Positions 1-46,077 of a DNA stretch of 46,077 nucleotides are shown here, one piece after another (position 1 is the first letter of the stretch; each line of letters starts with the position of its first letter). This DNA comes from Eubacteriales bacterium. GTDB lineage: Bacteria > Bacillota > Clostridia > Oscillospirales > CAG-272. The stretch covers positions 1 to 46,077 of the forward strand of contig JAZQWH010000005.1 of assembly GCA_045632205.1 (NCBI GenBank), read 5' to 3'. The translations under genes and the position numbers were made by a program. A model generated the notes under the pieces. It was not told where the DNA came from and ran no database searches. It saw nothing but the letters and a program-made list of their open reading frames with translations.

Positions 1-81
1 ACTGGCGAGTTTCGACCCATCGCCCGAACTGGCGAGTTTCGACCCATCGCCCGAACTGGCGAGTTTCGACCCATCGCCCGA
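1..81 (-). repeat. 27-bp tandem repeat, 3 exact copies of ACTGGCGAGTTTCGACCCATCGCCCGA
   Basis: Exact copies at 1-27, 28-54 and 55-81. In frame on the minus strand they encode the nonapeptide SGDGSKLAS. The same unit is found at 45874-46077. Confidence 0.97.
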
Positions 82-483
82 AAAATTAACCTTTTTTAGC
101 CAGTCTATAGAAAAACCAACCGCCGCTTTCACAAACCCGCAAAAGGTAATTTTTGCGCCGATTTTGAGCCGCGTTGTGACTTTTTTATTATTATCGCCTT
201 CGCAAGGCGCGAGCGCTTGAACTTCCGCGAACTCGTTAGGAATTGCGTCATCGTTCAACAACGGATAATGGTCAAGCACATCAAGCGGGTTTTCGCAGAA
301 GTGCATCCCCTTGTTGCACAACTGCGCTTCCGGCTCCTCGAACACGGTATTTTCGGCGTACTGCTTGCCCCGGCAGATCAGCCCCGGCTCGAAGCCCTTG
401 AAGCCGACCGCATAGACCTTTTCATCGCCGCTTTCGGCTTTTTTCGGTGCGGACGTGAAACGACCTTTTTCGTCTCTGTTCAT
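1..483 (-). CDS. N-terminal part of a repeat-containing protein (DUF7666-like domain followed by SGDGSKLAS repeats); partial, runs off the window start
   Basis: ATG at 483-481 overlaps the upstream stop (ATGA). My translation: MNRDEKGRFTSAPKK...GFKGFEPGLICRGKQYAENTVFEE..LCNKGMHFCENPLDVLDHYPLL..., then SGDGSKLAS x3. The GFKGF...C.G.QY...G.HFCENPLDV..YY pattern is what I recall for DUF7666 phage/bacterial proteins. The +strand ORF 217-519 is its shadow. Confidence 0.7.
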   Translation of the reverse strand, partial: MNRDEKGRFTSAPKKAESGDEKVYAVGFKGFEPGLICRGKQYAENTVFEEPEAQLCNKGMHFCENPLDVLDHYPLLNDDAIPNEFAEVQALAPCEGDNNKKVTTRLKIGAKITFCGFVKAAVGFSIDWLKKVNFSGDGSKLASSGDGSKLASSGDGSKLAS

Positions 484-620
484 CGTGCCGCCCTCCGCGC
501 CTTGAAGTTGGCAAGGTAGCGCGCCATATTCGGCGCGGTCGCGGTAGTCGTGGCGCGGACCAACTGTCCGCATTCGGAGACCAACCATCCGGTGTAAATC
601 TTGTTCTTCTTCATTTTCAT
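480..620 (-). CDS. Hypothetical 46-aa protein
   Basis: Hand-translated as MKMKKNKIYTGWLVSECGQLVRATTTATAPNMARYLANFKARRAAR. Its stop overlaps the next ATG (ATGA). It is below the ORF-track size cutoff. Confidence 0.4.
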   Translation of the reverse strand: MKMKKNKIYTGWLVSECGQLVRATTTATAPNMARYLANFKARRAAR

Positions 621-638
621 AGATCCATTCATCGAAAT

Positions 639-941
639 TCACGCGCCCATCGCGCGATTGAGTTCTGCGGCAAGCGTTCCGGCATACATTTCGGAATCGT
701 AGCCCTCGAAATACGCTTTGGGTACTTTCTCGCCCTTGAGTTCCGCGCGCAGATCGACCGCGATCCCCGTGCGCTTGTGGTAATCGGCAAGCCCCGCGCC
801 CGCCGCCGCCCACACCAGCGAATCCGGCAAACCGAGCGCGAACGACCGACGCACCATATCGCACGTCACCACCGTTGCACGCCGCGCGTCGGCAAGCAGT
901 TGTTTCCGCTTGTCCATCTTTATCGCGCTCATGTTCAACAT
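639..941 (-). CDS. Hypothetical protein, 100 aa (first gene of this leftward stretch)
   Basis: ORF track. GGAGG lies 10 nt upstream of the ATG. The composition looks protein-like. Confidence 0.6.
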   Translation of the reverse strand: MLNMSAIKMDKRKQLLADARRATVVTCDMVRRSFALGLPDSLVWAAAGAGLADYHKRTGIAVDLRAELKGEKVPKAYFEGYDSEMYAGTLAAELNRAMGA

Positions 942-1196
942 TTTTTCTTTGCCTCCAATTCTCCGAGATTTGCCGGGGTCGGTGCCCCGGCGTGATAACC
1001 ACCGTTTTGCATTGATTTCGATACTTTTTACGCTACATCATAGGCTCTGTCCTCCGTGCTGAAATTGACCTCTGCCCCTTTCCGGCAGACTTTCCCAAAA
1101 AAGAAGCGGCAGGGCGAAAACGGAGAAATGCGCTGGAGAACACATTTTCTCCGCTGTGGCGGCCCTTGGAAACCCCTGCCCGCCCGCGTGAACTCG

Positions 1197-1257
1197 TGCT
1201 ATATTAAGGAACGGCACATCACCGGAGGCTTTTTCCGCATTGCTGCGGAGAAAGGAG
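1197..1257 (+). promoter_or_regulatory. Extended -10 promoter (TGcTATATT, 1197-1205) plus leader with hairpin CCGCA-TTGC-TGCGG (1235-1248) and GGAG/AAAGGAGG
   Basis: TGnTATATT motif. The leader is paralogous to 1479-1539, and the hairpin shows compensatory changes between the two copies. Confidence 0.55.
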
Positions 1258-1425
1258 GTGATAAGCATAGACATCGTTTCTCTTGGAGTGATGGACAGAA
1301 ACCGAGCGATCGGCATGTATGTCCGCGAAGTGCGGGCGATAATATCGCGCCGCGTGTCCGAGGGTAAAGACGCCGCAGCCATCGCGCGGGAAGTCTTGCC
1401 ACTTCTGCGCGAGATCGTGCTTTAG
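1258..1425 (+). CDS. Small helical protein, paralog A (about 55 aa; start uncertain: GTG 1258 or later)
   Basis: In-frame sequence ..ISIDIVSLGVMDRNRAIGMYVREVRAIISRRVSEGKDAAAIAREVLPLLREIVL. It shares the pattern LG.M...RAI-x19-DAAAI...V.PL with ORF 1540-1725 although the nucleotides have diverged. Confidence 0.6.
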   Translation: MISIDIVSLGVMDRNRAIGMYVREVRAIISRRVSEGKDAAAIAREVLPLLREIVL

Positions 1426-1478
1426 AAATCTTTGCCGTAGAACATTGGCCTACCCCTCCGGTGATGTTCCGTTTTCGA

Positions 1479-1539
1479 TGCTATATTAAAGACGCGGCGC
1501 ACTACCGGAGCCTTGACCGTCGCAGGACGGAGAAAGGAG
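1479..1539 (+). promoter_or_regulatory. Second extended -10 promoter (TGcTATATT, 1479-1487) plus leader with hairpin CCGTC-GCAG-GACGG (1517-1530)
   Basis: Duplicate of the 1197-1257 cassette. Same -10, same CGGAGAAAGGAGGTG ribosome-site block. Confidence 0.55.
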
Positions 1540-1725
1540 GTGGTGCTTATAAGTGATGTTGACCTCGGACTAATGTCATACGACCGGGCGATCCGCGTGT
1601 TGTCGCGCGAACTGCTCTCGGTCGTGGCGTTGAGTTTGTCGAACGGCATGGACGCGGCGGCGATCATGGACAAGGTAGCACCCTTGATTTCCCTGATCGA
1701 CGATTGCGACGCCATGCTTCGATAA
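1540..1725 (+). CDS. Small helical protein, paralog B (about 61 aa; start uncertain)
   Basis: ..LISDVDLGLMSYDRAIRVLSRELLSVVALSLSNGMDAAAIMDKVAPLISLIDDCDAMLR. Paralog of 1258-1425. Confidence 0.6.
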   Translation: MVLISDVDLGLMSYDRAIRVLSRELLSVVALSLSNGMDAAAIMDKVAPLISLIDDCDAMLR

Positions 1726-1759
1726 CTCATCTTCACCTTAATCCCCGGCAGTGCGCCGC

Positions 1760-1936
1760 TTATTTGTCTTGCTTTTTTATTCCATCGGCAACTGCTTGGA
1801 CGCCAGCCTCTATCACTTTATAGGCGAATGCCGATCGTGTAAATTCAGTTTGTTTAAGGACTTCGGAGAAGCGAGCGCGCAGCACTCCGTTTTCATCGGG
1901 AATTGCGGGTCTAAATACCGTAGTTTTCTTTTTCAA
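1760..1936 (-). CDS. Ribbon-helix-helix (Arc/MetJ/CopG-like) small DNA-binding protein, 58 aa, TTG start
   Basis: Hand-translated after GGAGGTG-aatt-TTG as (M)KKKTTVFRPAIPDENGVLRARFSEVLKQTEFTRSAFAYKVIEAGVQAVADGIKKQDK. It shows a beta-strand then two helices, as in RHH repressors. Not in the ORF track (below 60 aa). Confidence 0.6.
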   Translation of the reverse strand: MKKKTTVFRPAIPDENGVLRARFSEVLKQTEFTRSAFAYKVIEAGVQAVADGIKKQDK

Positions 1937-1976
1937 AATTCACCTCCATTGGGATTTTCCCCATCAACCAATGCTT

Positions 1977-2004
1977 AATATAATCCTATTTTATGATGTG
2001 TCAA
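1977..2004 (-). promoter_or_regulatory. Near-consensus sigma70-type promoter for the RHH gene: TTGACA (2004-1999), 16-nt spacer, TATATT (1982-1977)
   Basis: Read on the minus strand. ATCCT/GTCCT half-sites lie within and next to it. Confidence 0.6.
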
Positions 2005-2013
2005 GTCCTAATT

Positions 2014-2052
2014 TTGAAAAAAATAAGGATTTTTTTAGGATTTTTTAAGGAC
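2014..2052 (+). promoter_or_regulatory. Candidate rightward promoter (TTGAAA 2014-2019, 16 nt, TAGGAT 2036-2041) overlapped by three AGGA(T/C) direct repeats at exact 11-bp spacing (2026, 2037, 2048)
   Basis: Direct repeats AGGATTTTTTT, AGGATTTTTTA and AGGAC. Inverted copies ATCCT at 1983 and GTCCT at 2005 sit 22 bp apart. Confidence 0.45.
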
Positions 2053-2106
2053 AGGGGGTGAAAAATGCGGATTTCGGGGATATTTTATACAGCAAGGAGG
2101 CTAATC

Positions 2107-2541
2107 ATGGATAAAATTGCAGAAAAACTATTTACATACATGCATGTCAACGGAATAACCCAAAGAGACGCCGCGACGATGCTGGGAGTGGATCGCAACA
2201 CACTAACCAACTGGCGCAATGGAGGAGTTGTAGGTGCAAAAAGCGTTCGCGCCATTCAAGAACTCACGCGAGATTTTGTCAAAGAACAGCACGAAACTTC
2301 TATTGGAAAGATTGATGAAGTAACCGCTTGCTTGCTTAAAACCATTATACAGTTGCCCCTCGTAGATCGTTGCCGCTTGCTTGCGATTGCCGATGATATG
2401 AAAAATGGTGCAAATTCTTCCGCAATCCCGAAGAAAATATTGCATTGCCCTGCTTGCGGGGTAGACCTTCCCGATACTTGGAAAGTCGGAGACAAACACG
2501 AATGTCCGAAGTGTGGACAACATATAAAACTGGTTCCGTAG
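2107..2541 (+). CDS. Repressor-like HTH (XRE-type) protein with C-terminal zinc ribbon, no S24 peptidase domain
   Basis: AAGGAGG lies 6 nt before ATG 2107 (the ORF track starts at 2065). HTH segment ITQRDAATMLGVDRNTLTNWRNG. C-terminus HCPACG...ECPKCG. Divergent from the RHH gene. Confidence 0.8.
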   Translation: MDKIAEKLFTYMHVNGITQRDAATMLGVDRNTLTNWRNGGVVGAKSVRAIQELTRDFVKEQHETSIGKIDEVTACLLKTIIQLPLVDRCRLLAIADDMKNGANSSAIPKKILHCPACGVDLPDTWKVGDKHECPKCGQHIKLVP

Positions 2542-2542
2542 C

Positions 2543-4630
2543 ATGACTGATTACGAAACAATCTATGTCAGCATTGGCGAGCGCGATCTTCCGCTAACTC
2601 AATATACGCACCGCGAGCCGGACATGGAGCCGCGCATTCACGCTCCGCTTGCCGACCTCCACACGCATTATGAGATTGTCGAAAAGTTTGCCGAGGGCGG
2701 CTTTTCCACCGTCTACGTCGCACAGGATAAAAACCTCCGGCGCTTCGTCGCGGTCAAGTCCCTGCGCCCGGAGGTCACCGCGACCGACTCTTTCATATCC
2801 GAAGCCAAGACCATCGCCCAACTCGACCACCCGGCGATATTGCCGATTTACGGACTTGCCGGAGACGAACACAACGGGCTGCACCTTTGCATGAAACTCG
2901 TGAACGGTCGCACCCTGCGCCATCGTCTGCGCCATATCGTAAGTTCGGGCAAAGACAGCGACGCGGCGATCCGCGAACGACTGGACATTTTCTTGCGAGT
3001 TTGCGATGCTGTTTCCTACGCGCATGCGCGCAACATTATTCATGGCGACCTCAAACCCGAAAACATCGTGGTCGGTGAATACGGCGAAGTCTATGTTGTG
3101 GATTGGGGCTTGGCAAAAAAGGTCGCGCCCGATGGCGCATGCGCCGATGTAAAGATCGTCGGTACGCCGCGCTATTTCGCGCCCGAAACTCTGCGCGACG
3201 GCATTTGCGGGAATTTCTCTGAGGTATTCACTCTCGGGCTTATTTTGGAAGAAATAACCACCCTGCGCCTCGCGGTCAACGAAAACGGCGAAGCCGCGCC
3301 CGCGCCGGAGGTGCTGAGACATCTTTTCGGACATCGCATCGACGCTCCGCTTGCCGCAATCATCCGCAAAGCAACCGCCGCCGACCCCGGCGACCGATAC
3401 GATACGACCGCCGACCTTGCCGACGATCTCCGTTGTTACCTCGCGGGAGTGGCGGTCTCCGCGCTCCCGGATAATCTTTTTTCGCGTTTTGCCCGCATTT
3501 GCTGTCGCCGCCGGAAAGAGTGTGTTGCCGGGGCGTTGGCGGTGCTGCTGGTGTTCGCCGCTATCACCGCCGCCGCGATCTTCCGGCAACTACAAATATC
3601 GCGGGAAATGCACGAGCGAAGCCGCGCGTTCAATTACTTGAACGACCGCACCGCGACGGTCGCGGCGCACCTTGACTTGACCGCATTACAGATTCAGGAG
3701 CAATTGCTCGCCCTTGCGCGTATCTGCGCGTATCTGCTTGATTCCAATACCACGCCGCCCGCCGACGCATGGCAAGCGGCGTTCCGCCCGTCTCTCTCCG
3801 AAATCGGCAAATCCGAAAACGGCATGATCTATTCTCCGTATTATAAGCGGTTGACCGCGATGGATTACGGAATTTACCAGTTTGCGCCCGATGCCGACCG
3901 CGCGCGGTGTATCGACTTCATGCGGCGCACCTCTCCCGCGCTGCGTAAAATGCGAAACATCGTCCTCGGCAGCATGTCCGGGTACAATTTCGTCCCCGGC
4001 GAGTTCGAGCGGTTGAAGATGGCGTATCTTTACAACGGCTTTCCTGTGCGTTCCGTGTTTGTCGGTACGGTTGACGGGTTGAAGTTGCTCTATCCGTGGC
4101 GTGGCAACTATCCGCGCACCGTTGACCCTCGCAAGCGCGACTGGTACAAACTGGCGCGCCTCCGCCGCGCTCCGGTGTGGGGCAAGCCGTACATGGACTT
4201 CGACTCGGTTTCCGGGCTGTCAATCCCCTGCTCCGTCCCGATCATCGACTTTCAGGATAACTTCCGGGGCGCTGTCGGACTTGACCTCTCGCTAAATAAA
4301 CTGACGGAGCGCATTTTGAGCCGGGGCAACGTGGGCGACTATGTGATCGAAAAAGCGGTAATCAGCCGCGCCGGGGAGACGGTCTTTTCGTCGAAGTCAA
4401 AGTATTTCAACGCGAAATTCGATCCCGAAAAGTTCCACCGCGATACCGAGTTCAAAACTCCGATGTTTTCCACTCCCGAAGTGCGCGACCGCATTTTGAA
4501 AAGCGGCAGGGAGTACGGAACTTTCATTGTCGGCAAGGAGATTTATTCATTCGCGGTACTGGAAGTTTTCGACGCGGTTTTCGTGGTAGTCGCTGACTAC
4601 GACAAACTTAAACAACATATCAGGAAGTAA
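2543..4630 (+). CDS. Membrane Hanks-type Ser/Thr protein kinase with one TM helix and a C-terminal extracytoplasmic Cache-like sensor domain
   Basis: Kinase motifs EGGFSTVYVA, VAVKSL, HGDLKPENIVV, DWGLAK and GTPRYFAPE. TM helix at about aa 327-347 (VAGALAVLLVFAAITAAAIF). Ectodomain carries RDWYKLA..WGKPYMDFDSVSGLSIPCSVPI, the Cache/PDC signature. The ATG lies 1 nt after the upstream stop. Confidence 0.88.
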   Translation: MTDYETIYVSIGERDLPLTQYTHREPDMEPRIHAPLADLHTHYEIVEKFAEGGFSTVYVAQDKNLRRFVAVKSLRPEVTATDSFISEAKTIAQLDHPAILPIYGLAGDEHNGLHLCMKLVNGRTLRHRLRHIVSSGKDSDAAIRERLDIFLRVCDAVSYAHARNIIHGDLKPENIVVGEYGEVYVVDWGLAKKVAPDGACADVKIVGTPRYFAPETLRDGICGNFSEVFTLGLILEEITTLRLAVNENGEAAPAPEVLRHLFGHRIDAPLAAIIRKATAADPGDRYDTTADLADDLRCYLAGVAVSALPDNLFSRFARICCRRRKECVAGALAVLLVFAAITAAAIFRQLQISREMHERSRAFNYLNDRTATVAAHLDLTALQIQEQLLALARICAYLLDSNTTPPADAWQAAFRPSLSEIGKSENGMIYSPYYKRLTAMDYGIYQFAPDADRARCIDFMRRTSPALRKMRNIVLGSMSGYNFVPGEFERLKMAYLYNGFPVRSVFVGTVDGLKLLYPWRGNYPRTVDPRKRDWYKLARLRRAPVWGKPYMDFDSVSGLSIPCSVPIIDFQDNFRGAVGLDLSLNKLTERILSRGNVGDYVIEKAVISRAGETVFSSKSKYFNAKFDPEKFHRDTEFKTPMFSTPEVRDRILKSGREYGTFIVGKEIYSFAVLEVFDAVFVVVADYDKLKQHIRK

Positions 4631-4649
4631 AGAGTGGAGGTAAGAAAAA

Positions 4650-4934
4650 ATGGAAAACGATACTACGAAGTCCGCAATCAAAACCGTTCCCTGCCGCTTC
4701 TGCGGATGGATGGTTTCTCCTCGCGCAAAGGTCTGTCCTCATTGTGGCGATCCTATAAACTGCGGAAACGGGCGACATGCATTTACGGTAGGAATTGCCG
4801 GGATTATCGTTTTCCCGATGATTATACTTTGCGCGCTTCTGTTTTTGGGCGCTATAGCCTCGGGACAAAGCGATAAATTCTTTCATGCACTGGTCGTGTT
4901 TTTGCTTGCGCTCTCTATTTTCGGGAGAAGATAA
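4650..4934 (+). CDS. Zinc-ribbon membrane protein (CxxC..CxxC N-terminus, two predicted TM helices)
   Basis: CRFCG...CPHCG followed by FTVGIAGIIVFPMIILCALLFLGAI and FFHALVVFLLALSIF. GGAGG lies 9 nt upstream. Confidence 0.7.
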   Translation: MENDTTKSAIKTVPCRFCGWMVSPRAKVCPHCGDPINCGNGRHAFTVGIAGIIVFPMIILCALLFLGAIASGQSDKFFHALVVFLLALSIFGRR

Positions 4935-5018
4935 ATGAAAGATTTTTATATTGCCGTCATTGCAGTATCTTGTTTTTTGGCAAGACAAGATCAAAAACCT
5001 GTAAAACAAAGATGCTAA
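4935..5018 (+). CDS. 27-codon micro-ORF (MKDFYIAVIAVSCFLARQDQKPVKQRC): hydrophobic N-terminus, charged C-terminus
   Basis: Hand-translated. The ATG directly abuts the upstream TAA. GGGAG lies 7 nt upstream. The stop is 2 nt before the next ATG. Not in the ORF track. Confidence 0.4.
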   Translation: MKDFYIAVIAVSCFLARQDQKPVKQRC

Positions 5019-5020
5019 AA

Positions 5021-5722
5021 ATGAAAAAACTATTAATATTTGCGTTGCTGTTGTCCATATCTGTACTGCCTGTCATGGCAAAAGATGCAGTAGTTTCATC
5101 TGAAAAAATTGAGAAATTTAAGTCGCTGGTTGTCGCGAAACGCTACAAAGAAGCATTAAAAATGCTGGAAAATCTGCGTTCTATTAAAGAGTTTTTTGCT
5201 TATAATGAAAGTATATTACAAGTAAAAAAAGACAAGTGGTTTTCAGATGCCTTAACCAAAAAATTTTCGGCAACAAAAGCAAAAGAAGCGGAAGAAATCA
5301 TTAGTAAGTTGCCAATGGGAAATAATTTAGATGAATTAAACTCTCGCCATGATGGATTTGAAAATCGCTTGGATCGAGGAACCATATATAATTATAGCGG
5401 ATCAACGGATTATTTCTATTTCTTTGAGGTGATACAAGTAGTGGATCAGCGCAGGATATTAGTTGCTCGACGGTTGATGAATGAATCCATGTTGGAATGG
5501 GCGCGCCCCGTAGTGTTGTCTGTTTTGCATAAAAAAGGTACTGAATATTACCCCGGACAAAGACTTGAAAGCGGGAAGTATGTTTGTTGGGGGACTATAA
5601 CTTATCAAACTGTTGATGGTCGCAAGAATACTATTTACCATTTACTGGATATGGAAAGTTTTAAAGATGTTGCCCCATTTGCCGTGAATTATTATTGGGC
5701 GGATAAAGAAAAAAAAGAATAA
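5021..5722 (+). CDS. Secreted protein of unknown function (signal peptide MKKLLIFALLLSISVLPVMA/KD), low-GC moron
   Basis: Classical Sec signal peptide. The region 4935-5722 is visibly AT-rich compared with its flanks. An alternative ATG lies at 5012. Confidence 0.7.
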   Translation: MKKLLIFALLLSISVLPVMAKDAVVSSEKIEKFKSLVVAKRYKEALKMLENLRSIKEFFAYNESILQVKKDKWFSDALTKKFSATKAKEAEEIISKLPMGNNLDELNSRHDGFENRLDRGTIYNYSGSTDYFYFFEVIQVVDQRRILVARRLMNESMLEWARPVVLSVLHKKGTEYYPGQRLESGKYVCWGTITYQTVDGRKNTIYHLLDMESFKDVAPFAVNYYWADKEKKE

Positions 5723-5726
5723 AGAA

Positions 5727-6839
5727 ATGGCGCTCCGCAAGATAAAACTCGGCTATTACATCCACTACCGCGACGAACAGGGGCGGCAGCGCACGATGTC
5801 GCTGCATACCCGCGATCCGAAGATCGCGCGGAAAGTCCACGATGACTTCATGGCGAAACTCTCCGCCGCCAAGACCACCTACAAACTTTTGGAGCGCCAC
5901 GGTAGTTTGTTCCCCGAGGCGGCGGCGCAAGCCATGTTGGAGGAAAGCCCCGTCCCGGAATACCATCCGCGCGAGGAAAAGCGCCTCCGCCTCGATGAAA
6001 TGATCGAGGTGGCACGCCAGCACCGCGAACTCTCCAAAGACCACATGGACACTTTCGCCCGGTTCTGCACCGCCGTAGCGCCGCTGAAATACGCCAAAGA
6101 GATAACCCCGGAAGTCGCGCTGGACTTCCTCGACGCGCGCTACGGCGGCGGGAACGGCAAGACTTACAACAACGTGCTGACGCAACTTAACGTGATCTTC
6201 AAATCGTGCCTTGTCCGCGCGCACATGGACACGTCACCGTTCGCCTCCATCCCCCGGCGCATTGTCCGAAAAGTCGAACACTTCCGACCGCTGACACCTG
6301 ACGAGTTCCGCGCTGTCTTTGCCGCCGCCGCCGAGCCGTGGAAAACCGCCGCCCTGATCTCTTGGCATACCGCGCTCCGACGCGAAACGTGCTTTCGCCT
6401 TTCTTGGTCGCACATCGACGAAGCCGACCATTCGTTTACCATCATGCCGGGGAAAACGGCGCGTTTCGGGCGCGCTGTGTACGTGCCGATCCACCCGGAG
6501 TTATGGCAACACCTGATTGCGCTGCCGCGCCCCGCAGACCCCTCAAAACCGATTTTAAGCCAATGGCCGCAACACGTCCGCTACGGGGGCAACAAGGAAC
6601 TTGAATATTTTTCGGGACTGCTCCGCGCTCTGGACATCCGCGACACGTCCGAGGGGAAAGCGGGGTTTCACTCGCTCCGGGCGTCGTTCGTCACCCGCTG
6701 CGACGAGGCGGGGATTTCCCGTCGCGCGACAAAGGGGATCGCCGGACACACCGCCGATGACATGACCGACCTTTACAGCCATGACCGCGCGACCGCGCGG
6801 CAAATCCTGACCCTCCCGAACGTGCTGGATACCCCCTAA
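5727..6839 (+). CDS. int: Tyrosine recombinase / phage integrase
   Basis: C-terminal catalytic pattern: ..WHTALRRET.., HSLRASFVT, GIAGHTADDMTDLYSHD (R..HxxR..H..Y). Adjacent to a tRNA fragment. Confidence 0.92.
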   Translation: MALRKIKLGYYIHYRDEQGRQRTMSLHTRDPKIARKVHDDFMAKLSAAKTTYKLLERHGSLFPEAAAQAMLEESPVPEYHPREEKRLRLDEMIEVARQHRELSKDHMDTFARFCTAVAPLKYAKEITPEVALDFLDARYGGGNGKTYNNVLTQLNVIFKSCLVRAHMDTSPFASIPRRIVRKVEHFRPLTPDEFRAVFAAAAEPWKTAALISWHTALRRETCFRLSWSHIDEADHSFTIMPGKTARFGRAVYVPIHPELWQHLIALPRPADPSKPILSQWPQHVRYGGNKELEYFSGLLRALDIRDTSEGKAGFHSLRASFVTRCDEAGISRRATKGIAGHTADDMTDLYSHDRATARQILTLPNVLDTP

Positions 6840-6885
6840 AATCCGTGTGTAAACTTGGTGTAACCTCCGCTTTTTGAGCGTGGTT

Positions 6886-6935
6886 CTTGGGTTTTCATCC
6901 CGGCAACACGGGTTCGAATCCCGTTGGAGATGCCA
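6886..6935 (+). other. tRNA 3' portion (anticodon arm to CCA; UUC loop if folded, Glu-like), candidate attP core
   Basis: T arm ACGGG-TTCGAAT-CCCGT, then acceptor 3' strand TGGAGAT, G, CCA (6908-6935). Anticodon stem-loop TTGGG-TTTTCAT-CCCGG. The 5' side does not give a proper D arm or acceptor stem. Confidence 0.6.
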
Positions 6936-7062
6936 ATTTTTTTGCCCTCATTTTCCTACCGTTTAACGTGTTGCACCTCAAGCCGCTTTTTGCCGCACGT
7001 GCCGACATTCGCCCGTTTTTTGCCCGATTTTGAGGCTAATTGTGTGTAACCCTCGGTGTAAC

Positions 7063-7091
7063 ATGTTGCCGGGTTTTTGACCCGGCAACAC
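7063..7091. repeat. Perfect inverted repeat GTTGCCGGG-n7-CCCGGCAAC; the right arm duplicates the 11-mer CCCGGCAACAC of the tRNA fragment (6899-6909)
   Basis: Read directly. There is no U-run on either strand, so it is not a classical terminator. Confidence 0.7.
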
Positions 7092-7113
7092 AAAAACGAG
7101 CGCCGAATGTGCG

Positions 7114-7464
7114 TTACAGCACGTCCAGTCCCGGATCGTCGCGCTTGCTCGCGCTCTCGGTATAAAGCAACGTCGCATAAGCCGCACGTCCCGCTTCGTC
7201 GTTCTTCATTCCCGACTTGGCAAGATAGCGATAAAATCCCGCGCTGTCGATATCCTGAAAGACAATCCGCGCCGCCACGTCAGGATCCAGCATTTCCAAA
7301 AACAACCTCTCTCCCATCTTGAAGCGGTCGTAGTTCTCTTTGGAGCGGATTTCTTCAAATTCCTCCCGCGTGTAAGTCGCCAGCACCAACACCGATTCCG
7401 GGTGTTCGTGCGCTATTCGCTCCACGGCTTCCGCCTGATGCTCCGCGTCCGATATTACAGACAT
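7114..7464 (-). CDS. Hypothetical protein, 116 aa
   Basis: ORF track. Protein-like composition. Last gene of the leftward 9.4-7.1 kb operon. Confidence 0.65.
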   Translation of the reverse strand: MSVISDAEHQAEAVERIAHEHPESVLVLATYTREEFEEIRSKENYDRFKMGERLFLEMLDPDVAARIVFQDIDSAGFYRYLAKSGMKNDEAGRAAYATLLYTESASKRDDPGLDVL

Positions 7465-7512
7465 GATTAATTCCCTTCCGAACGTGCATTACAGCACGTG
7501 CCATGTAGCGCG

Positions 7513-8034
7513 CTACTCGAAGTAATAAAGTTTGGTTCGCCCCTCGTAGACATACCCGTCGCGTGTGTCTGTCCGCTTGCGGGACTGTATATAGAACGTC
7601 TTGAACTTGATCCGATGGCCGTCCTTGAGTTCCGATTCACGCACGTCATCCCAATTCCGCTGGCAAGCACGGTAACGACCGAGCAGATGTTTCCCAAGCC
7701 GAATACGTGTCGCCGCTTGCGATTTTTTCATCCGCTCGCGCCAATCCGGGCATTTCTCCCGCGCCGCGTTCATTTTGTCTACCAGCCCCATTCGCATTTT
7801 GCGTGTTCGCTCCGCCGGCGTCGGTCCCTGCTGCGGCCATTCTCCCGCCGCGCGCTTTTCGCGTTCGATCCCCTGCACGTGTTCACGGGGGAACGTGGTT
7901 TTTCCGTTGCGCCAGTTGTAGACGGTCTGCAACGTGACCCCCATTGCGGCGGCAAACTCCATCATCGACACGTTATTTCGCTCGCAGATTTCGTTGATCT
8001 CCGCGACTTTGACTTTCGCTATATAGCGCGACAT
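7513..8034 (-). CDS. HTH DNA-binding protein (N-terminal XRE-like HTH, basic C-terminal domain)
   Basis: EICERNNVSMMEFAAAMGVTLQTVYNWRNGK. GGAGG lies 8 nt upstream of the ATG. Confidence 0.7.
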   Translation of the reverse strand: MSRYIAKVKVAEINEICERNNVSMMEFAAAMGVTLQTVYNWRNGKTTFPREHVQGIEREKRAAGEWPQQGPTPAERTRKMRMGLVDKMNAAREKCPDWRERMKKSQAATRIRLGKHLLGRYRACQRNWDDVRESELKDGHRIKFKTFYIQSRKRTDTRDGYVYEGRTKLYYFE

Positions 8035-8054
8035 ATCATATCCTCCGCACGTGT

Positions 8055-8135
8055 TTACTTTTCAAAAACCGGATTGCCGTTTTCGTCGCAGTCGATCCAT
8101 TCCCCCGTGACGGGGTCAACAAAATACTTTTCCAT
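8055..8135 (-). CDS. Micro-ORF, 26 aa (MEKYFVDPVTGEWIDCDENGNPVFEK)
   Basis: Hand-translated. AAGGAG lies upstream. Confidence 0.35.
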   Translation of the reverse strand: MEKYFVDPVTGEWIDCDENGNPVFEK

Positions 8136-8195
8136 TTCCTTTTCGCTCCTTACTTTAGCACGTGTTTTCTTTTTTTCAAACCGAAGTTGTTTTAT

Positions 8196-8429
8196 TTATC
8201 CCGCAATCCGCCCCGCCGAACGTCGCCAAAGTTCCTTGAAGTCGTAATATCGGTTGAAAAGTTCCTCCGATATGCAAGCAACTTGCGCCATTTCAATATC
8301 TCCAACTTCAAGGATGTAATAGCGGATTTCGTGCTGCTGCAGAAACGCAATGTCTCCGTAACTCAAATCCTCATCACGCTCTACCGCCGCTTTGATCTCT
8401 TTGTATTCGTTGTACTGTTCGCGGTTCAT
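8196..8429 (-). CDS. Hypothetical protein, 77 aa
   Basis: AAAGGAG lies 8 nt before ATG 8429 (MNREQYNEYKE...). The ORF-track start at 8462 is less likely. Confidence 0.6.
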   Translation of the reverse strand: MNREQYNEYKEIKAAVERDEDLSYGDIAFLQQHEIRYYILEVGDIEMAQVACISEELFNRYYDFKELWRRSAGRIAG

Positions 8430-8454
8430 TGTCCTAACTCCTTTTTTGCACGTG

Positions 8455-8664
8455 TCAAGCAAGACGATTTTTCCCGTAAATAGACCAAACTTCCACCTTG
8501 CAAGGGCGTGGCGCGTCTTCCATCTTCGCCGCGAATTGCATCAATTTTGCATAGGTCCCTCGTTTAGTTCTGGTACGTTCGCTTTTTCCATAGGTATAAT
8601 CGAGATACCATATATCACCATGACGATCAAAAGAATACATGCCGAGATAATGATACTTCGCCAT
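8455..8664 (-). CDS. Hypothetical protein, 69 aa
   Basis: ORF track. GGAGG lies upstream. Tightly packed against its neighbours. Confidence 0.55.
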   Translation of the reverse strand: MAKYHYLGMYSFDRHGDIWYLDYTYGKSERTRTKRGTYAKLMQFAAKMEDAPRPCKVEVWSIYGKNRLA

Positions 8665-8666
8665 TT

Positions 8667-8882
8667 TTACCGATCCTCCATGTTATACCAAAAAATACGA
8701 CCTTCCGACGCTGCCGAACAGATACCGCATTTCGCGCTATCGAAATCAAAGAAAAACGAAATCCGATTGATCCGACATGCGCGCGCATTGTTTTGCTTGC
8801 ACCACTCCAGCGCAAGCGGAAAATATTTCCGTTCGGTTTGAGTGATGTAGACTTTTTCGCTATTTCGCTCAAGTTTCAACAT
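8667..8882 (-). CDS. Hypothetical protein, 71 aa
   Basis: ORF track. GGAGGGGG lies upstream. Confidence 0.55.
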   Translation of the reverse strand: MLKLERNSEKVYITQTERKYFPLALEWCKQNNARACRINRISFFFDFDSAKCGICSAASEGRIFWYNMEDR

Positions 8883-8885
8883 GAT

Positions 8886-8981
8886 TTACCCCCTCCGAAA
8901 AACGCGGATCAGAACCGCACCAAAACCACCACACACAATCGGAGCAACCCCGACCACCAACAGAAAAGCAACGTCGAACAT
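8886..8981 (-). CDS. Micro-ORF, 31 aa, single TM (MFDVAFLLVVGVAPIVCGGFGAVLIRVFRRG)
   Basis: Hand-translated. GAGGTG lies upstream. Confidence 0.35.
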   Translation of the reverse strand: MFDVAFLLVVGVAPIVCGGFGAVLIRVFRRG

Positions 8982-8990
8982 TAGCGCACC

Positions 8991-9428
8991 TCACTTCGCA
9001 ATAACGACATAACGACCACCGCCGAAGCGGTAACGCTCTACTTTTCGGACTTCGAATCCGATTTTTTCAAGAACACATTCGACGCTCTCAAATCCGCATC
9101 CGCCGTTCAGACATATTTTATAACCAGGGCGGAAATGCTTGCGGTGCTTTTTGGCAATCGGATCATAGAAATCGAGCGCGTAAAAATCATCCGCCGCAAG
9201 TTTCTCAAGTTCGGCAGCAAAATGCACCTTTACCCATTCGGCGAACACCGTACCGGCCATATCGTAACCGCCCCCATTGCACCGAGCGATTTTCTGACCG
9301 TATTCGCGGAGCGTGCAGATTCTCTGACCGTAAGTGTCACGGCCGCGACTTTCGCCATATTTGATCGTGAAACTCGGAAGTTCCGCGGCAATTTCGATCC
9401 GCTGCGATTTGCTGATAAGATAACGCAT
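8991..9428 (-). CDS. Hypothetical protein, 145 aa (first gene of the leftward accessory operon)
   Basis: ATG 9428 (MRYLISKSQ...). The upstream part of track ORF 8991-9521 overlaps a promoter and a hairpin. Confidence 0.6.
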   Translation of the reverse strand: MRYLISKSQRIEIAAELPSFTIKYGESRGRDTYGQRICTLREYGQKIARCNGGGYDMAGTVFAEWVKVHFAAELEKLAADDFYALDFYDPIAKKHRKHFRPGYKICLNGGCGFESVECVLEKIGFEVRKVERYRFGGGRYVVIAK

Positions 9429-9442
9429 AATACAAACCTTTC

Positions 9443-9470
9443 TTGACTTTTCCCCGAAGCGGTCTATATT
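9443..9470 (+). promoter_or_regulatory. Sigma70-type promoter: TTGACT (9443-9448), 16 nt, TATATT (9465-9470), rightward
   Basis: Read directly. The -10 lies in the loop of the inverted repeat CCCGAAGCG/CGCTTCGGG. Confidence 0.5.
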
Positions 9471-9476
9471 ATGTTC

Positions 9477-9550
9477 GCTTCGGGATTTACTGGTTACTTC
9501 CTGAATGCCCGCTCCGGCCATGCTGCGAACATGGCCGGAGCAACTTTTTT
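9477..9550 (+). ncRNA. Candidate ~70-nt terminated transcript (late-operon leader or cis-antisense sRNA)
   Basis: It lies between the 9443 promoter and the 9511-9550 terminator. It is complementary to the 5' UTR expected from the leftward promoter at 9625-9652. Confidence 0.35.
9511..9550 (+). terminator. Intrinsic terminator: 12-bp stem GCTCCGGCCATG/CATGGCCGGAGC, 7-nt loop, then AAC plus T6
   Basis: Perfect stem followed by a T-run on the + strand only. Confidence 0.7.
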
Positions 9551-9624
9551 AAATCTTTCGTTTCACCTCCATTTTTACTTGACTTTCAAGCGGTCTAACC
9601 GTCTCTTTTTCTTACTTCATTTAT

Positions 9625-45662: not shown

Positions 45663-46077
45663 TCCGCCACCTCCACGAACTTGCCATTCTTGACCGTGTA
45701 CCAAGTGTCGGCTTTGATCTTCTCCCCATCAACCTTGCCGGAGATTAGCGCGACCGGATGCCATTCGCCTTTGTCATTCTCTCGCCACTCCGCGCAAGCG
45801 ATGAAGCAGCCGAGCGCGCCCTTGACCTTGCTTTCGCGTCCGGTGGCGGCTATCACGGAGTTCTCCCCGGTCGCTTCGAGTTGCGACCCATCGCCCGAAC
45901 TGGCGAGTTTCGACCCATCGCCCGAACTGGCGAGTTTCGACCCATCGCCCGAACTGGCGAGTTGCGACTCATCGCCCGAACTGGCGAGTTTCGACCCATC
46001 GCCCGAACTGGCGAGTTTCGACCCATGGCCCGAACTGGCGAGTTTCGACCAATCGCCCGAACTGGCGAGTTTCGACC
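45659..46077 (-). CDS. C-terminal part of the repeat protein (continues from the window start if circular)
   Basis: The open frame enters from the window end: SKLASSGDWSKLASSGHGSKLASSGDGSKLASSGDESQLAS...SGDGSQLEATGENSVIAATGRESKVKG...KNGKFVEVAE stop. Confidence 0.7.
   Translation of the reverse strand, partial: SKLASSGDWSKLASSGHGSKLASSGDGSKLASSGDESQLASSGDGSKLASSGDGSKLASSGDGSQLEATGENSVIAATGRESKVKGALGCFIACAEWRENDKGEWHPVALISGKVDGEKIKADTWYTVKNGKFVEVAE
45874..46077 (-). repeat. 27-bp tandem repeat, about 7.5 copies with point variants
   Basis: Units begin at 45899, 45926, 45953, 45980, 46007 and 46034, with a 17-nt partial unit at 46061. Variants are TTGCGACTC (DESQ), CATGGCC (H) and CCAATC (W). 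Confidence 0.95.

Follow-up and report, generated by a model that had tools for sequence, protein, structure and literature searches.

A receptor kinase gene directly behind a phage repressor gene

Why would a temperate phage carry a membrane receptor kinase gene directly behind the gene at the position of its repressor? This question is raised by contig JAZQWH010000005.1 (GenBank assembly GCA_045632205.1), a stretch of 46,077 nt that is referred to here, at its full length, as the window. In it, a gene at the cI position ends with a TAG at 2539-2541 and is followed, after a single base, by the ATG at 2543 of an open reading frame (ORF) for a 695-aa protein kinase. A first-pass annotation made from the sequence alone had noted this 1-nt spacing, which is as read in the sequence, and had suggested that the kinase might feed an extracellular cue into the lysis-lysogeny switch. 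The analyses reported below indicate that the kinase is a captured host receptor with an intact double-Cache (dCache_1) sensor, which recurs in related phages as a unit with a zinc-ribbon-bearing repressor, and they point, tentatively, to a role of this unit as a ligand-gated input to the switch. The two genes and the parts of the kinase are the following:

2107-2541, plus strand: repressor-like protein at the CI position, 144 aa (Pfam, PHROGs, alignments with at least nine relatives)
2543-4630, plus strand: receptor Ser/Thr kinase, 695 aa (Pfam, AlphaFold2 (AF2) models, Foldseek, conservation)
2669-3442: kinase domain
3512-3580: transmembrane helix
3581-3745: stalk helix
3746-4318: membrane-distal PDC module (pocket residues R532, W534, Y535, Y550 and D581)
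4319-4627: membrane-proximal PDC module

The kinase domain

The 695-aa protein matched Pkinase (PF00069) with an E value of 5.7e-34 (118 bits against a cut-off of 31.7), and its full-length AF2 model (pLDDT 87.6) matched PknA and PknB in Foldseek with target-normalised TM-scores of 0.78-0.84. Residues K72, E87, D169, N174, D187 and E215 were invariant in 70 relatives. The full set of Hanks motifs that had been read by eye, with HGD and DWG as variants of HRD and DFG, was thus recovered by profile and by conservation. The same reading had allowed that these variants might mark an inactive kinase, a proviso that the sequences did not bear out: DWG replaces DFG in 70 of the 70 family sequences, and the HRD position varies among R, C and G across the family, the window kinase having HGD and being of the non-RD type. 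The variants were therefore rejected as signs of a dead kinase, since DWG is invariant family-wide and the catalytic residues are all retained. By profile, fold and catalytic residues the protein is an intact Hanks-type Ser/Thr kinase, with predicted phosphotransfer activity. A single transmembrane helix, also expected from the first reading, was placed at aa 324-346.

The ectodomain is predicted to be an amino-acid-type dCache_1 sensor

Foldseek searches with the full-length model returned kinases only, and a separate AF2 model of the ectodomain (aa 350-695) was therefore made. This model (pLDDT 90.9, pTM 0.88) consists of a long stalk helix followed by two alpha/beta (PDC) modules. Its best PDB matches were all dCache_1 ligand-binding domains (E values of 6e-11 to 1e-8, probability 1.0), and the top 40 were dCache_1 sensors of amino acids, GABA or taurine; the targets named were an Aeromonas diguanylate cyclase with proline, Mlp24 and Mlp37 with amino acids or taurine, CtaA, PctA, PctB, PctC and Tlp3. 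The query-normalised TM-scores were moderate (0.35-0.5), which we attribute to the stalk and to a helical stretch of some 90 residues inserted into the distal module. By sequence, the ectodomain matched the PDB entries 7K5N (1.5e-6), Mlp24 (6IOP; 5e-5) and PctA (7e-4). The MCP-like_PDC_1 profile matched aa 527-589 with 34.7 bits (cut-off 27), and dCache_1 gave 23.4 bits, below its cut-off of 45; dCache_1 is on record for most of the relatives. The Cache/PDC ectodomain proposed in the first-pass annotation from a short signature was confirmed in this way by profile and by a confident fold prediction, and the Pkinase and HTH_3 profile searches that it had proposed also gave matches.

In the motif by which dCache_1 domains bind amino acids (AA_motif), Y121, R126 and W128 contact the carboxyl group and Y144 and D173 the amino group, with 13-17 residues between the two parts, and Y129 is also noted (PMC8915833). 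Alignment with PctA placed Y121, R126, W128, Y129, Y144 and D173 at V527, R532, W534, Y535, Y550 and D581 of the window kinase. Five of these six PctA-numbered contact residues are retained, 15 residues lie between W534 and Y550, and the five are invariant or nearly so across the 70 members of the family. From the model and the motif, the ectodomain is predicted to be a dCache_1 sensor of the amino-acid-binding type, and an amino-acid-like ligand is a reasonable guess.

The repressor-position gene and the switch region

The 144-aa product of 2107-2541 carries an XRE-type helix-turn-helix (HTH) at aa 15-48, a conserved middle helix motif and, at aa 113-140, a C-terminal zinc ribbon with the four-Cys motif CPxC-x(n)-CPxCGQHI. 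HTH_3 matched marginally (23.2 bits, cut-off 23), zinc-ribbon models matched below their cut-offs, and the PHROGs family phrog_2328, "transcriptional repressor", matched at 3.5e-6. A Pfam search of the protein found no Peptidase_S24 (LexA/lambda-CI-like autocleavage) domain. The first-pass annotation had described the same combination of XRE HTH and CPxC ribbon with no S24 domain. The start at 2107 appears preferable to the start at 2065 of the database gene call, because an AAGGAGG lies 7 nt upstream of its ATG and because it agrees with the N-termini of the homologues. When the HTH protein was used as a single query it recovered itself as the sole match, and its relatives came from a profile search. 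With the repressor profile, a full HMMER search of 1.84 billion representatives returned about 20 clusters of the family and no repressor-kinase fusion, most of the hits being generic multi-HTH proteins, and scans of IMG/VR and of JGI metagenomes with this profile found no relatives.

The region upstream of this gene contains the following features:

1760-1936, minus strand: ribbon-helix-helix (RHH)-like gene at the cro position (58-aa ORF), first gene of the leftward early operon
1977-2004, minus strand: near-consensus sigma-70-like promoter TTGACA-16-TATATT, facing the RHH gene (11/12 consensus match only)
2014-2041, plus strand: weaker promoter-like site TTGAAA-16-TAGGAT, facing the HTH-kinase operon, back-to-back with the leftward promoter (9/12 match)
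2024-2051, no strand assigned: 2.5 tandem copies of the 11-nt unit TAAGGATTTTT (Tandem Repeats Finder and repeat search)

The 58-aa ORF had no Pfam match; it fits the RHH pattern, its alignment shows strand-helix-helix, and RHH_1 matched the genes at the same position in the related phage contigs L001, L006 and L089. Both the RHH call and that of a near-consensus promoter facing this gene, divergent from the cI-position gene, had been made in the first reading and were upheld. The promoter scan of the region gave 7 sites against a chance expectation of 4.6, so that the site at 2014-2041 is by itself weak evidence; it overlaps copies of TAAGGATTTTT. Further GGATTTT / AATCC half-sites occur in 1949-2074, and the repeats and half-sites are candidate operators. 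In the window, an XRE HTH gene thus faces away from a cro-like gene across two back-to-back promoter-like sites, and the same layout was seen in at least eight relatives, from which the 2107-2541 product is predicted to be a repressor of the CI/XRE type. Two tandem paralogous units, each about 285 nt long (1150-1430 and 1440-1730), lie immediately past the RHH gene and point toward it, in a part of the early region that otherwise runs leftward; each consists of GTGCTATATTAA, then a strong Shine-Dalgarno sequence GGAGAAAGGAGGTG, and then a plus-strand ORF of 60-70 codons.

The repressor-kinase pair recurs in eight phage lineages

Pairs of an HTH-zinc-ribbon gene and the kinase gene were found in eight phage lineages: the window and the contigs L001, L002/L003, L006, L007/L008, L097, L098 and L099. 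The two genes overlap by as much as 26 nt or lie up to 6 nt apart, and the HTH gene lies opposite a small RHH-like gene. In sequence, the N-terminal HTH parts are of several types unrelated to one another, as would be expected if the immunities differ; common to all eight repressors are the middle helix motif and the C-terminal CPxC-x(n)-CPxCGQHI ribbon. The structural modules of the lineages differ as well, with an SU10-type portal and capsid in L002 and a Sf6-type terminase, portal and Mu-F-like gene in L001, L006 and L007. In L097, L098 and L099 the integrase gene does not adjoin the pair.

Counted by lineage, ribbon and kinase occur together in eight, the ribbon alone in one, the kinase alone in none and neither in three (Fisher one-sided p 0.018, phylogenetically uncorrected). 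The family members with neither are L089, L095 and L096. Two further proteins, P0130 and P0128, have the HTH type of L007 and no ribbon, and the contigs that encode them stop shortly behind the gene. The sole counter-example is L092, which has two tandem ribbon-type repressor paralogues and no kinase, and which weakened a further idea, namely that the zinc ribbon is a dedicated kinase-docking domain. In L092 (1558-3164), a 179-aa protein that has two zinc ribbons and transmembrane segments comes between the tandem HTH-ribbon paralogues and the integrase, and the leftward operon of L092 contains a Bro-N/ANT antirepressor-like gene.

Two further ribbons were seen next to the kinase. In L098, a four-Cys ribbon (MIADCPSCG...CAQCGHIF) is fused, in the same ORF, to the N-terminus of the kinase (2392-4596, protein cluster P0017), and in L006 a 43-aa stand-alone ribbon of a type like that of L098 is encoded at 4935-5066, directly after the kinase. 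In the window, too, the kinase gene is followed by the gene of a ribbon protein, one with two transmembrane helices. Common ancestry of these kinase-associated four-Cys ribbons, which are short sequences, cannot be proven. Among the host loci described below, a ribbon module within 6 kb of the kinase gene was found in 0 of 80. The survey of HTH-kinase synteny in related prophages that had been suggested for the window thus gave a positive result, the kinase going with the ribbon tail of the repressor. On the gene orders compared here, the repressor-kinase pair is a conserved unit and not an accident of one genome.

The kinase derives from a host receptor family

Lentisphaeria and Victivallales proved rich in homologues of the kinase. 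A relative is encoded by 233 stretches of the GTDB species representatives, the best being in metagenome-assembled genomes (MAGs) of rumen and gut Lentisphaeria, and 80 GTDB genome loci (L009-L088) were inspected. Lentisphaerota contain a large kinase-dCache family, which Myxococcota and others have as well, and DWG is present in essentially all of its members; six of the host loci (L016-L021) have two conserved upstream genes in common. The closest host-type proteins are about 765 aa long and 55-62% identical to the window kinase. The gene of one close host kinase lies on the chromosome between an MscS channel gene and an acetyltransferase gene, and no conserved neighbour was evident around the closest host-clade kinases. 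The closest proteins overall (62-71% identical) are encoded on phage-sized or phage-like contigs.

In a neighbour-joining tree, a rough one, the nine phage-context kinase clusters formed one clade. Its sister is the pair P0011 and P0021, of which P0021 was checked and is also phage-linked, and the phage clade together with this pair is sister to a host clade with HRD and about 765 aa. By this tree, the kinase would have entered the phage group once and been retained since then, always directly behind a ribbon-tailed repressor. The core phage clade of nine clusters has a short N-terminal leader, has lost an insert of about 10 residues in the kinase domain and has HGD or HCD in place of HRD. As a universal mark of phage copies HGD/HCD was rejected, because HRD is present in L099 and HCD or HGD also in distant host paralogues.

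Among the phage copies, mean identity was highest in the distal PDC module (0.74), with 0.66 in the kinase domain; among the host copies the order was reversed, with 0.78 in the kinase domain, the highest value, and 0.67 in the distal PDC module. Phage copies that have diverged far from each other keep both the catalytic residues and the pocket, an argument that selection acts in the phage on ligand sensing as well as on catalysis. The kinase is accordingly best described, on sequence grounds, as a captured host dCache_1 receptor kinase with its sensor intact. Taken as a whole, the domain calls and the repressor-kinase link of the first-pass annotation stood, and what it had missed were the capture from a host paralogue and the cargo slot of the relatives, which is taken up below.

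Possible roles of the kinase

The role that we rank first, and hold tentatively, is that of a ligand-gated input to the lysis-lysogeny switch. Repressor and kinase would be made from one lysogen transcript with coupled translation, and the periplasmic dCache_1 module would bind a small, amino-acid-like ligand, probably the one to which the host paralogue responds. Binding would alter the activity of the cytoplasmic non-RD kinase domain, which would act on the switch of the phage, its most plausible target being the zinc-ribbon-bearing repressor. The occupancy of the GGATTTT repeats between the back-to-back promoters by the repressor would change in consequence, and prophage maintenance or induction would respond to an extracellular chemical cue. 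This role is ranked first because it alone makes use of the integrase-independent adjacency of the two genes, of the ribbon correlation and of the ribbon-kinase fusion; it also explains the strong conservation of sensing. Since the repressor has no S24 autocleavage domain, some other route of inactivation would be needed. A specific form of this proposal is more doubtful: that the captured receptor kinase reads an extracellular amino-acid-like cue and phosphorylates its own ribbon-tailed repressor, on which it may be docked through the ribbon, so that induction and maintenance would be set by outside chemistry and not by DNA damage.

Several observations weigh against an input to the switch. 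The kinase-less relatives also have no S24 domain, which makes the kinase dispensable for the basic switch, and the latter should work without it. No conserved Ser/Thr phospho-acceptor could be identified in the repressor, and a scan of the operon and of 20 other phage ORFs (early-region and flanking) gave no phosphatase, FHA or CSD partner. The ribbon would not depend on the kinase, to judge from L092, and the ribbon-kinase association comes from small numbers of lineages that are not phylogenetically independent. In the sensor, the position of Y121 is Val in the window and Ile or Val in the clade, with Tyr in 27 of the 70 family members. The place of the kinase could also be simply a lysogen-expressed cargo slot, because unrelated cargo is found there in L089 and L095 and none in L096: L089 has a 193-aa protein between repressor and integrase, in L096 the integrase directly follows the repressor, and L095 (IMGVR_UViG_3300029211_000017), whose HTH is like that of L002, has a transmembrane protein and a signal-peptide nuclease-like protein at 5028-5917. 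The last of these contains the motif LWGIDAPE, which we take to resemble staphylococcal-nuclease-type enzymes. A scan of IMG/VR with the integrase found relatives only 37-38% identical, which carry other cargo. Finally, the only characterised kinase at such a genetic position, Stk of phage 933W, is an abortive-infection device (PMC3564112).

Alternatively, the phage kinase might act in lysogenic conversion, as cargo that phosphorylates the substrates of the host paralogue or heterodimerises with it and so rewires the ligand response of the host, with no direct effect on the switch. The closest host relatives are indeed stand-alone receptor kinases, 55-62% identical and in ordinary chromosomal contexts, the ectodomain and the transmembrane-stalk architecture have been retained, and the variable cargo slot is shared with low-GC secreted and membrane proteins that are typical of morons. 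We consider this explanation unlikely, as it leaves unexplained the constant position behind a ribbon-type repressor and the ribbon-kinase fusion of L098; in addition, the phage copies have lost the N-terminal extension, the kinase insert and the RD arginine of the host proteins, which suggests altered regulation or altered partners.

Superinfection exclusion or abortive infection, in the manner of 933W Stk, PD-T4-6 or lambda RexAB, would have a superinfecting phage activate the kinase of the lysogen, which would phosphorylate host proteins and abort the infection. It has the strongest precedent, the eukaryotic-like kinase of 933W, which is co-transcribed with cI and aborts infection by HK97 (PMC3564112; also PMC8008677), and prophage kinases of the KKP type also give defence (PMC11341870). 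The kinase domain matches the PADLOC profiles PD-T4-6 and mad6 with E values of 4e-49 to 1e-46, and the small membrane proteins that accompany the kinase resemble typical exclusion genes. The PADLOC matches are, however, confined to the generic kinase domain (aa 40-307), and the best-conserved part of the kinase is a periplasmic small-molecule pocket shared with housekeeping paralogues of the host. The defence kinases known to us lie in the cytoplasm and have phage proteins as their triggers. No 933W-like kinase and no Escherichia phage was among the phage tblastn matches at E<=1e-8, and we regard an exclusion function as rather unlikely.

Very improbable, in our judgement, is a toxin-antitoxin-like pair, analogous to HipB-HipA or MqsA-MqsR, in which the HTH-zinc-ribbon protein would neutralise a growth-arresting kinase, autoregulate the operon and stabilise the prophage. 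The XRE HTH gene of the window is translationally coupled to the kinase gene behind it, in an arrangement like that of hipBA. There is a match to the MqsA family (TIGR03830), but its 21 bits are far under the cut-off of 61.8 and it covers the HTH only. The KKP kinases are toxic (PMC11341870); the kinase of the window has the Hanks fold and not that of HipA, a ligand-binding membrane receptor is unexpected for the toxin of such a pair, and the HTH and RHH genes together form a switch of the classical divergent-promoter type. Input to the switch, host signalling and exclusion are not mutually exclusive.

Comparison with known systems

In its gene order the window resembles the cI-stk arrangement of 933W, a Hanks-type kinase gene directly behind the prophage repressor gene in a lysogen-expressed operon (PMC3564112), although for the window co-transcription is presumed from the spacing of the genes. 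It differs in the kinase, a membrane-spanning receptor that has its dCache_1 domain in the periplasm and derives from a host paralogue, in the ribbon tail of the repressor, and in that Stk was not found as a relative at the threshold given above. Ser/Thr kinases with amino acid-binding dCache_1 (dCache_1AA) sensors are known in bacteria, for example a kinase of Enhygromyxa salina with an amino-acid-binding sensor (Gumerov et al., 2022; PMC8915833). With these the window kinase shares the combination of kinase and dCache_1, the equivalents of R126, W128, Y129, Y144 and D173, and a fold like that of PctA, Mlp24, Mlp37 and Tlp3; unlike them it is phage-encoded and coupled to a repressor, has Val/Ile at the position of Y121 and contains the helical insertion in the distal module.

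The KKP systems of Pf and other prophages are likewise based on prophage Ser/Thr kinases, and KKP controls lysogeny by phosphorylating a DNA-binding silencer, in addition to its role in defence (PMC11341870). KKP, however, consists of two cytoplasmic kinases (CSD, FHA) and a PP2C phosphatase, whereas the window encodes a single membrane receptor kinase. A phage-borne receptor that couples a chemical cue to the switch is also found in VqmA-Phi of phage VP882 and in AimR of the arbitrium system, and that of VP882 is a homologue of a host receptor (PMC10274711, PMC11315295). Those receptors are cytoplasmic ligand-binding transcription factors, whereas that of the window would be transmembrane, would phosphorylate and would sense outside the cytoplasm.

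A kinase in a repressor operon (933W), prophage kinases regulating lysogeny (KKP), bacterial dCache_1 Ser/Thr kinases and phage copies of host receptors (VqmA-Phi) are thus already known. What appears to be new is that a phage encodes a transmembrane receptor kinase whose sensor is of the Cache type; we located no earlier example of this. The ectodomain had no match at an E value of 1e-3 among 50,697 GenBank phage records, its search against BFVD returned a giant-virus "Cache domain protein" only and no convincing phage dCache, and a scan of IMG/VR with the kinase profile found no relatives. Among the papers that could be searched, likewise, none described such a receptor kinase in a phage. 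These negatives are consistent with the view expressed in the first-pass annotation that an extracellular-cue sensor had not been described for phages. We know of no extracytoplasmic sensor in the known prophage kinases (933W Stk, KKP and PD-T4-6).

The phage genome and the rest of the lysogeny operon

The window is read as a complete temperate phage that looks circularly assembled. The temperate nature follows from a rightward block of ORFs of structural size from near 9.8 kb, a leftward early operon, a rightward operon (2107-6839) that terminates with a tyrosine integrase gene, and a tRNA fragment resembling an attP core. Terminase and portal genes lie at the position corresponding to the structural block in the related contigs L001, L006 and L007, and the early operon encodes a YqaJ exonuclease, RecT, DUF6291, two DNA methylases, DUF5131 and YopX. 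Both ends of the window fall in one array of 27-nt tandem repeats (1-82 and 45877-46077; Tandem Repeats Finder), so that the contig seems to be a circular genome broken within the repeat. The unit of this array is ACTGGCGAGTTTCGACCCATCGCCCGA, with about 10 copies in total at 95-100% identity; its period of 27 nt equals nine codons, with the minus-strand reading SGDGSKLAS, and a coding repeat or replication iterons are possible. The hosts of the phage are uncultured gut or rumen Lentisphaeria bacteria.

Downstream of the kinase, the following features were annotated:

4650-4934, plus strand: zinc-ribbon protein with two transmembrane helices, 94 aa (Zn_ribbon_3, 27.0 bits at a cut-off of 27; hydrophobic segments in the translation)
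4935-5018, plus strand: putative 27-codon ORF, abutting the preceding stop codon (ORF list only)
5012-5722, plus strand: low-GC protein with an N-terminal signal peptide, about 233 aa (translation)
5727-6839, plus strand: tyrosine integrase (Phage_integrase, E value 1.9e-9; phrog_1, E value 1.1e-34)
6884-6935 (about), plus strand: 3' part of a tRNA, with a UUC anticodon arm (Glu), T arm GGTTCGAATCC, acceptor strand and CCA (read from the sequence)

The order of genes from the zinc-ribbon protein to the integrase had been listed in the first reading, and all of them were located. A zinc-ribbon transmembrane protein comparable to the 4650-4934 product is present in the kinase-less relative L092, and small transmembrane peptides follow the kinase in L098. 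The signal-peptide protein is 34.5% identical to a 226-aa protein at the same position in L006 and had no match in Pfam, PHROGs, PADLOC or NCBIfam. GC content is 0.42 in the interval 5001-6000, against about 0.57 for the genome, and the gene of this protein looks like recently acquired cargo. The integrase is 63-71% identical to those of L001, L006, L007, L089 and L092.

For the fragment at 6884-6935, directly past the integrase gene, ARAGORN found no complete tRNA and Rfam gave nothing at E<=0.1 in a scan of 1-9600, as expected of a fragment. It is probably the attP core and points to a tRNA-Glu gene as the integration site of the phage. The rightward operon would therewith be a lysogeny operon made up of the HTH-zinc-ribbon repressor, the receptor kinase, small membrane and secreted proteins, the integrase and attP. 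In the leftward block beyond attP, a second HTH gene (7513-8034, minus strand; 173 aa) gave HTH_3 and YdaS-like matches below the cut-offs, and L002, L007 and L089 likewise carry HTH genes in the equivalent leftward block past the integrase.

Implications for the phages of Lentisphaeria

The locus suggests that phages can capture a whole signal-input device of the host and keep it for long, adjacent to a gene of the switch. If the kinase does feed the switch, it would be the first case of a receptor kinase acting as an input to the lysis-lysogeny decision of a phage, the repressor-kinase pair would form a compact ligand-to-transcription module, and the induction of prophages in gut and rumen could depend on nutrient-like cues. 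With this pair, whatever the target of the kinase, a defined and conserved accessory module can be added to the little that is known about the phages of Lentisphaeria.

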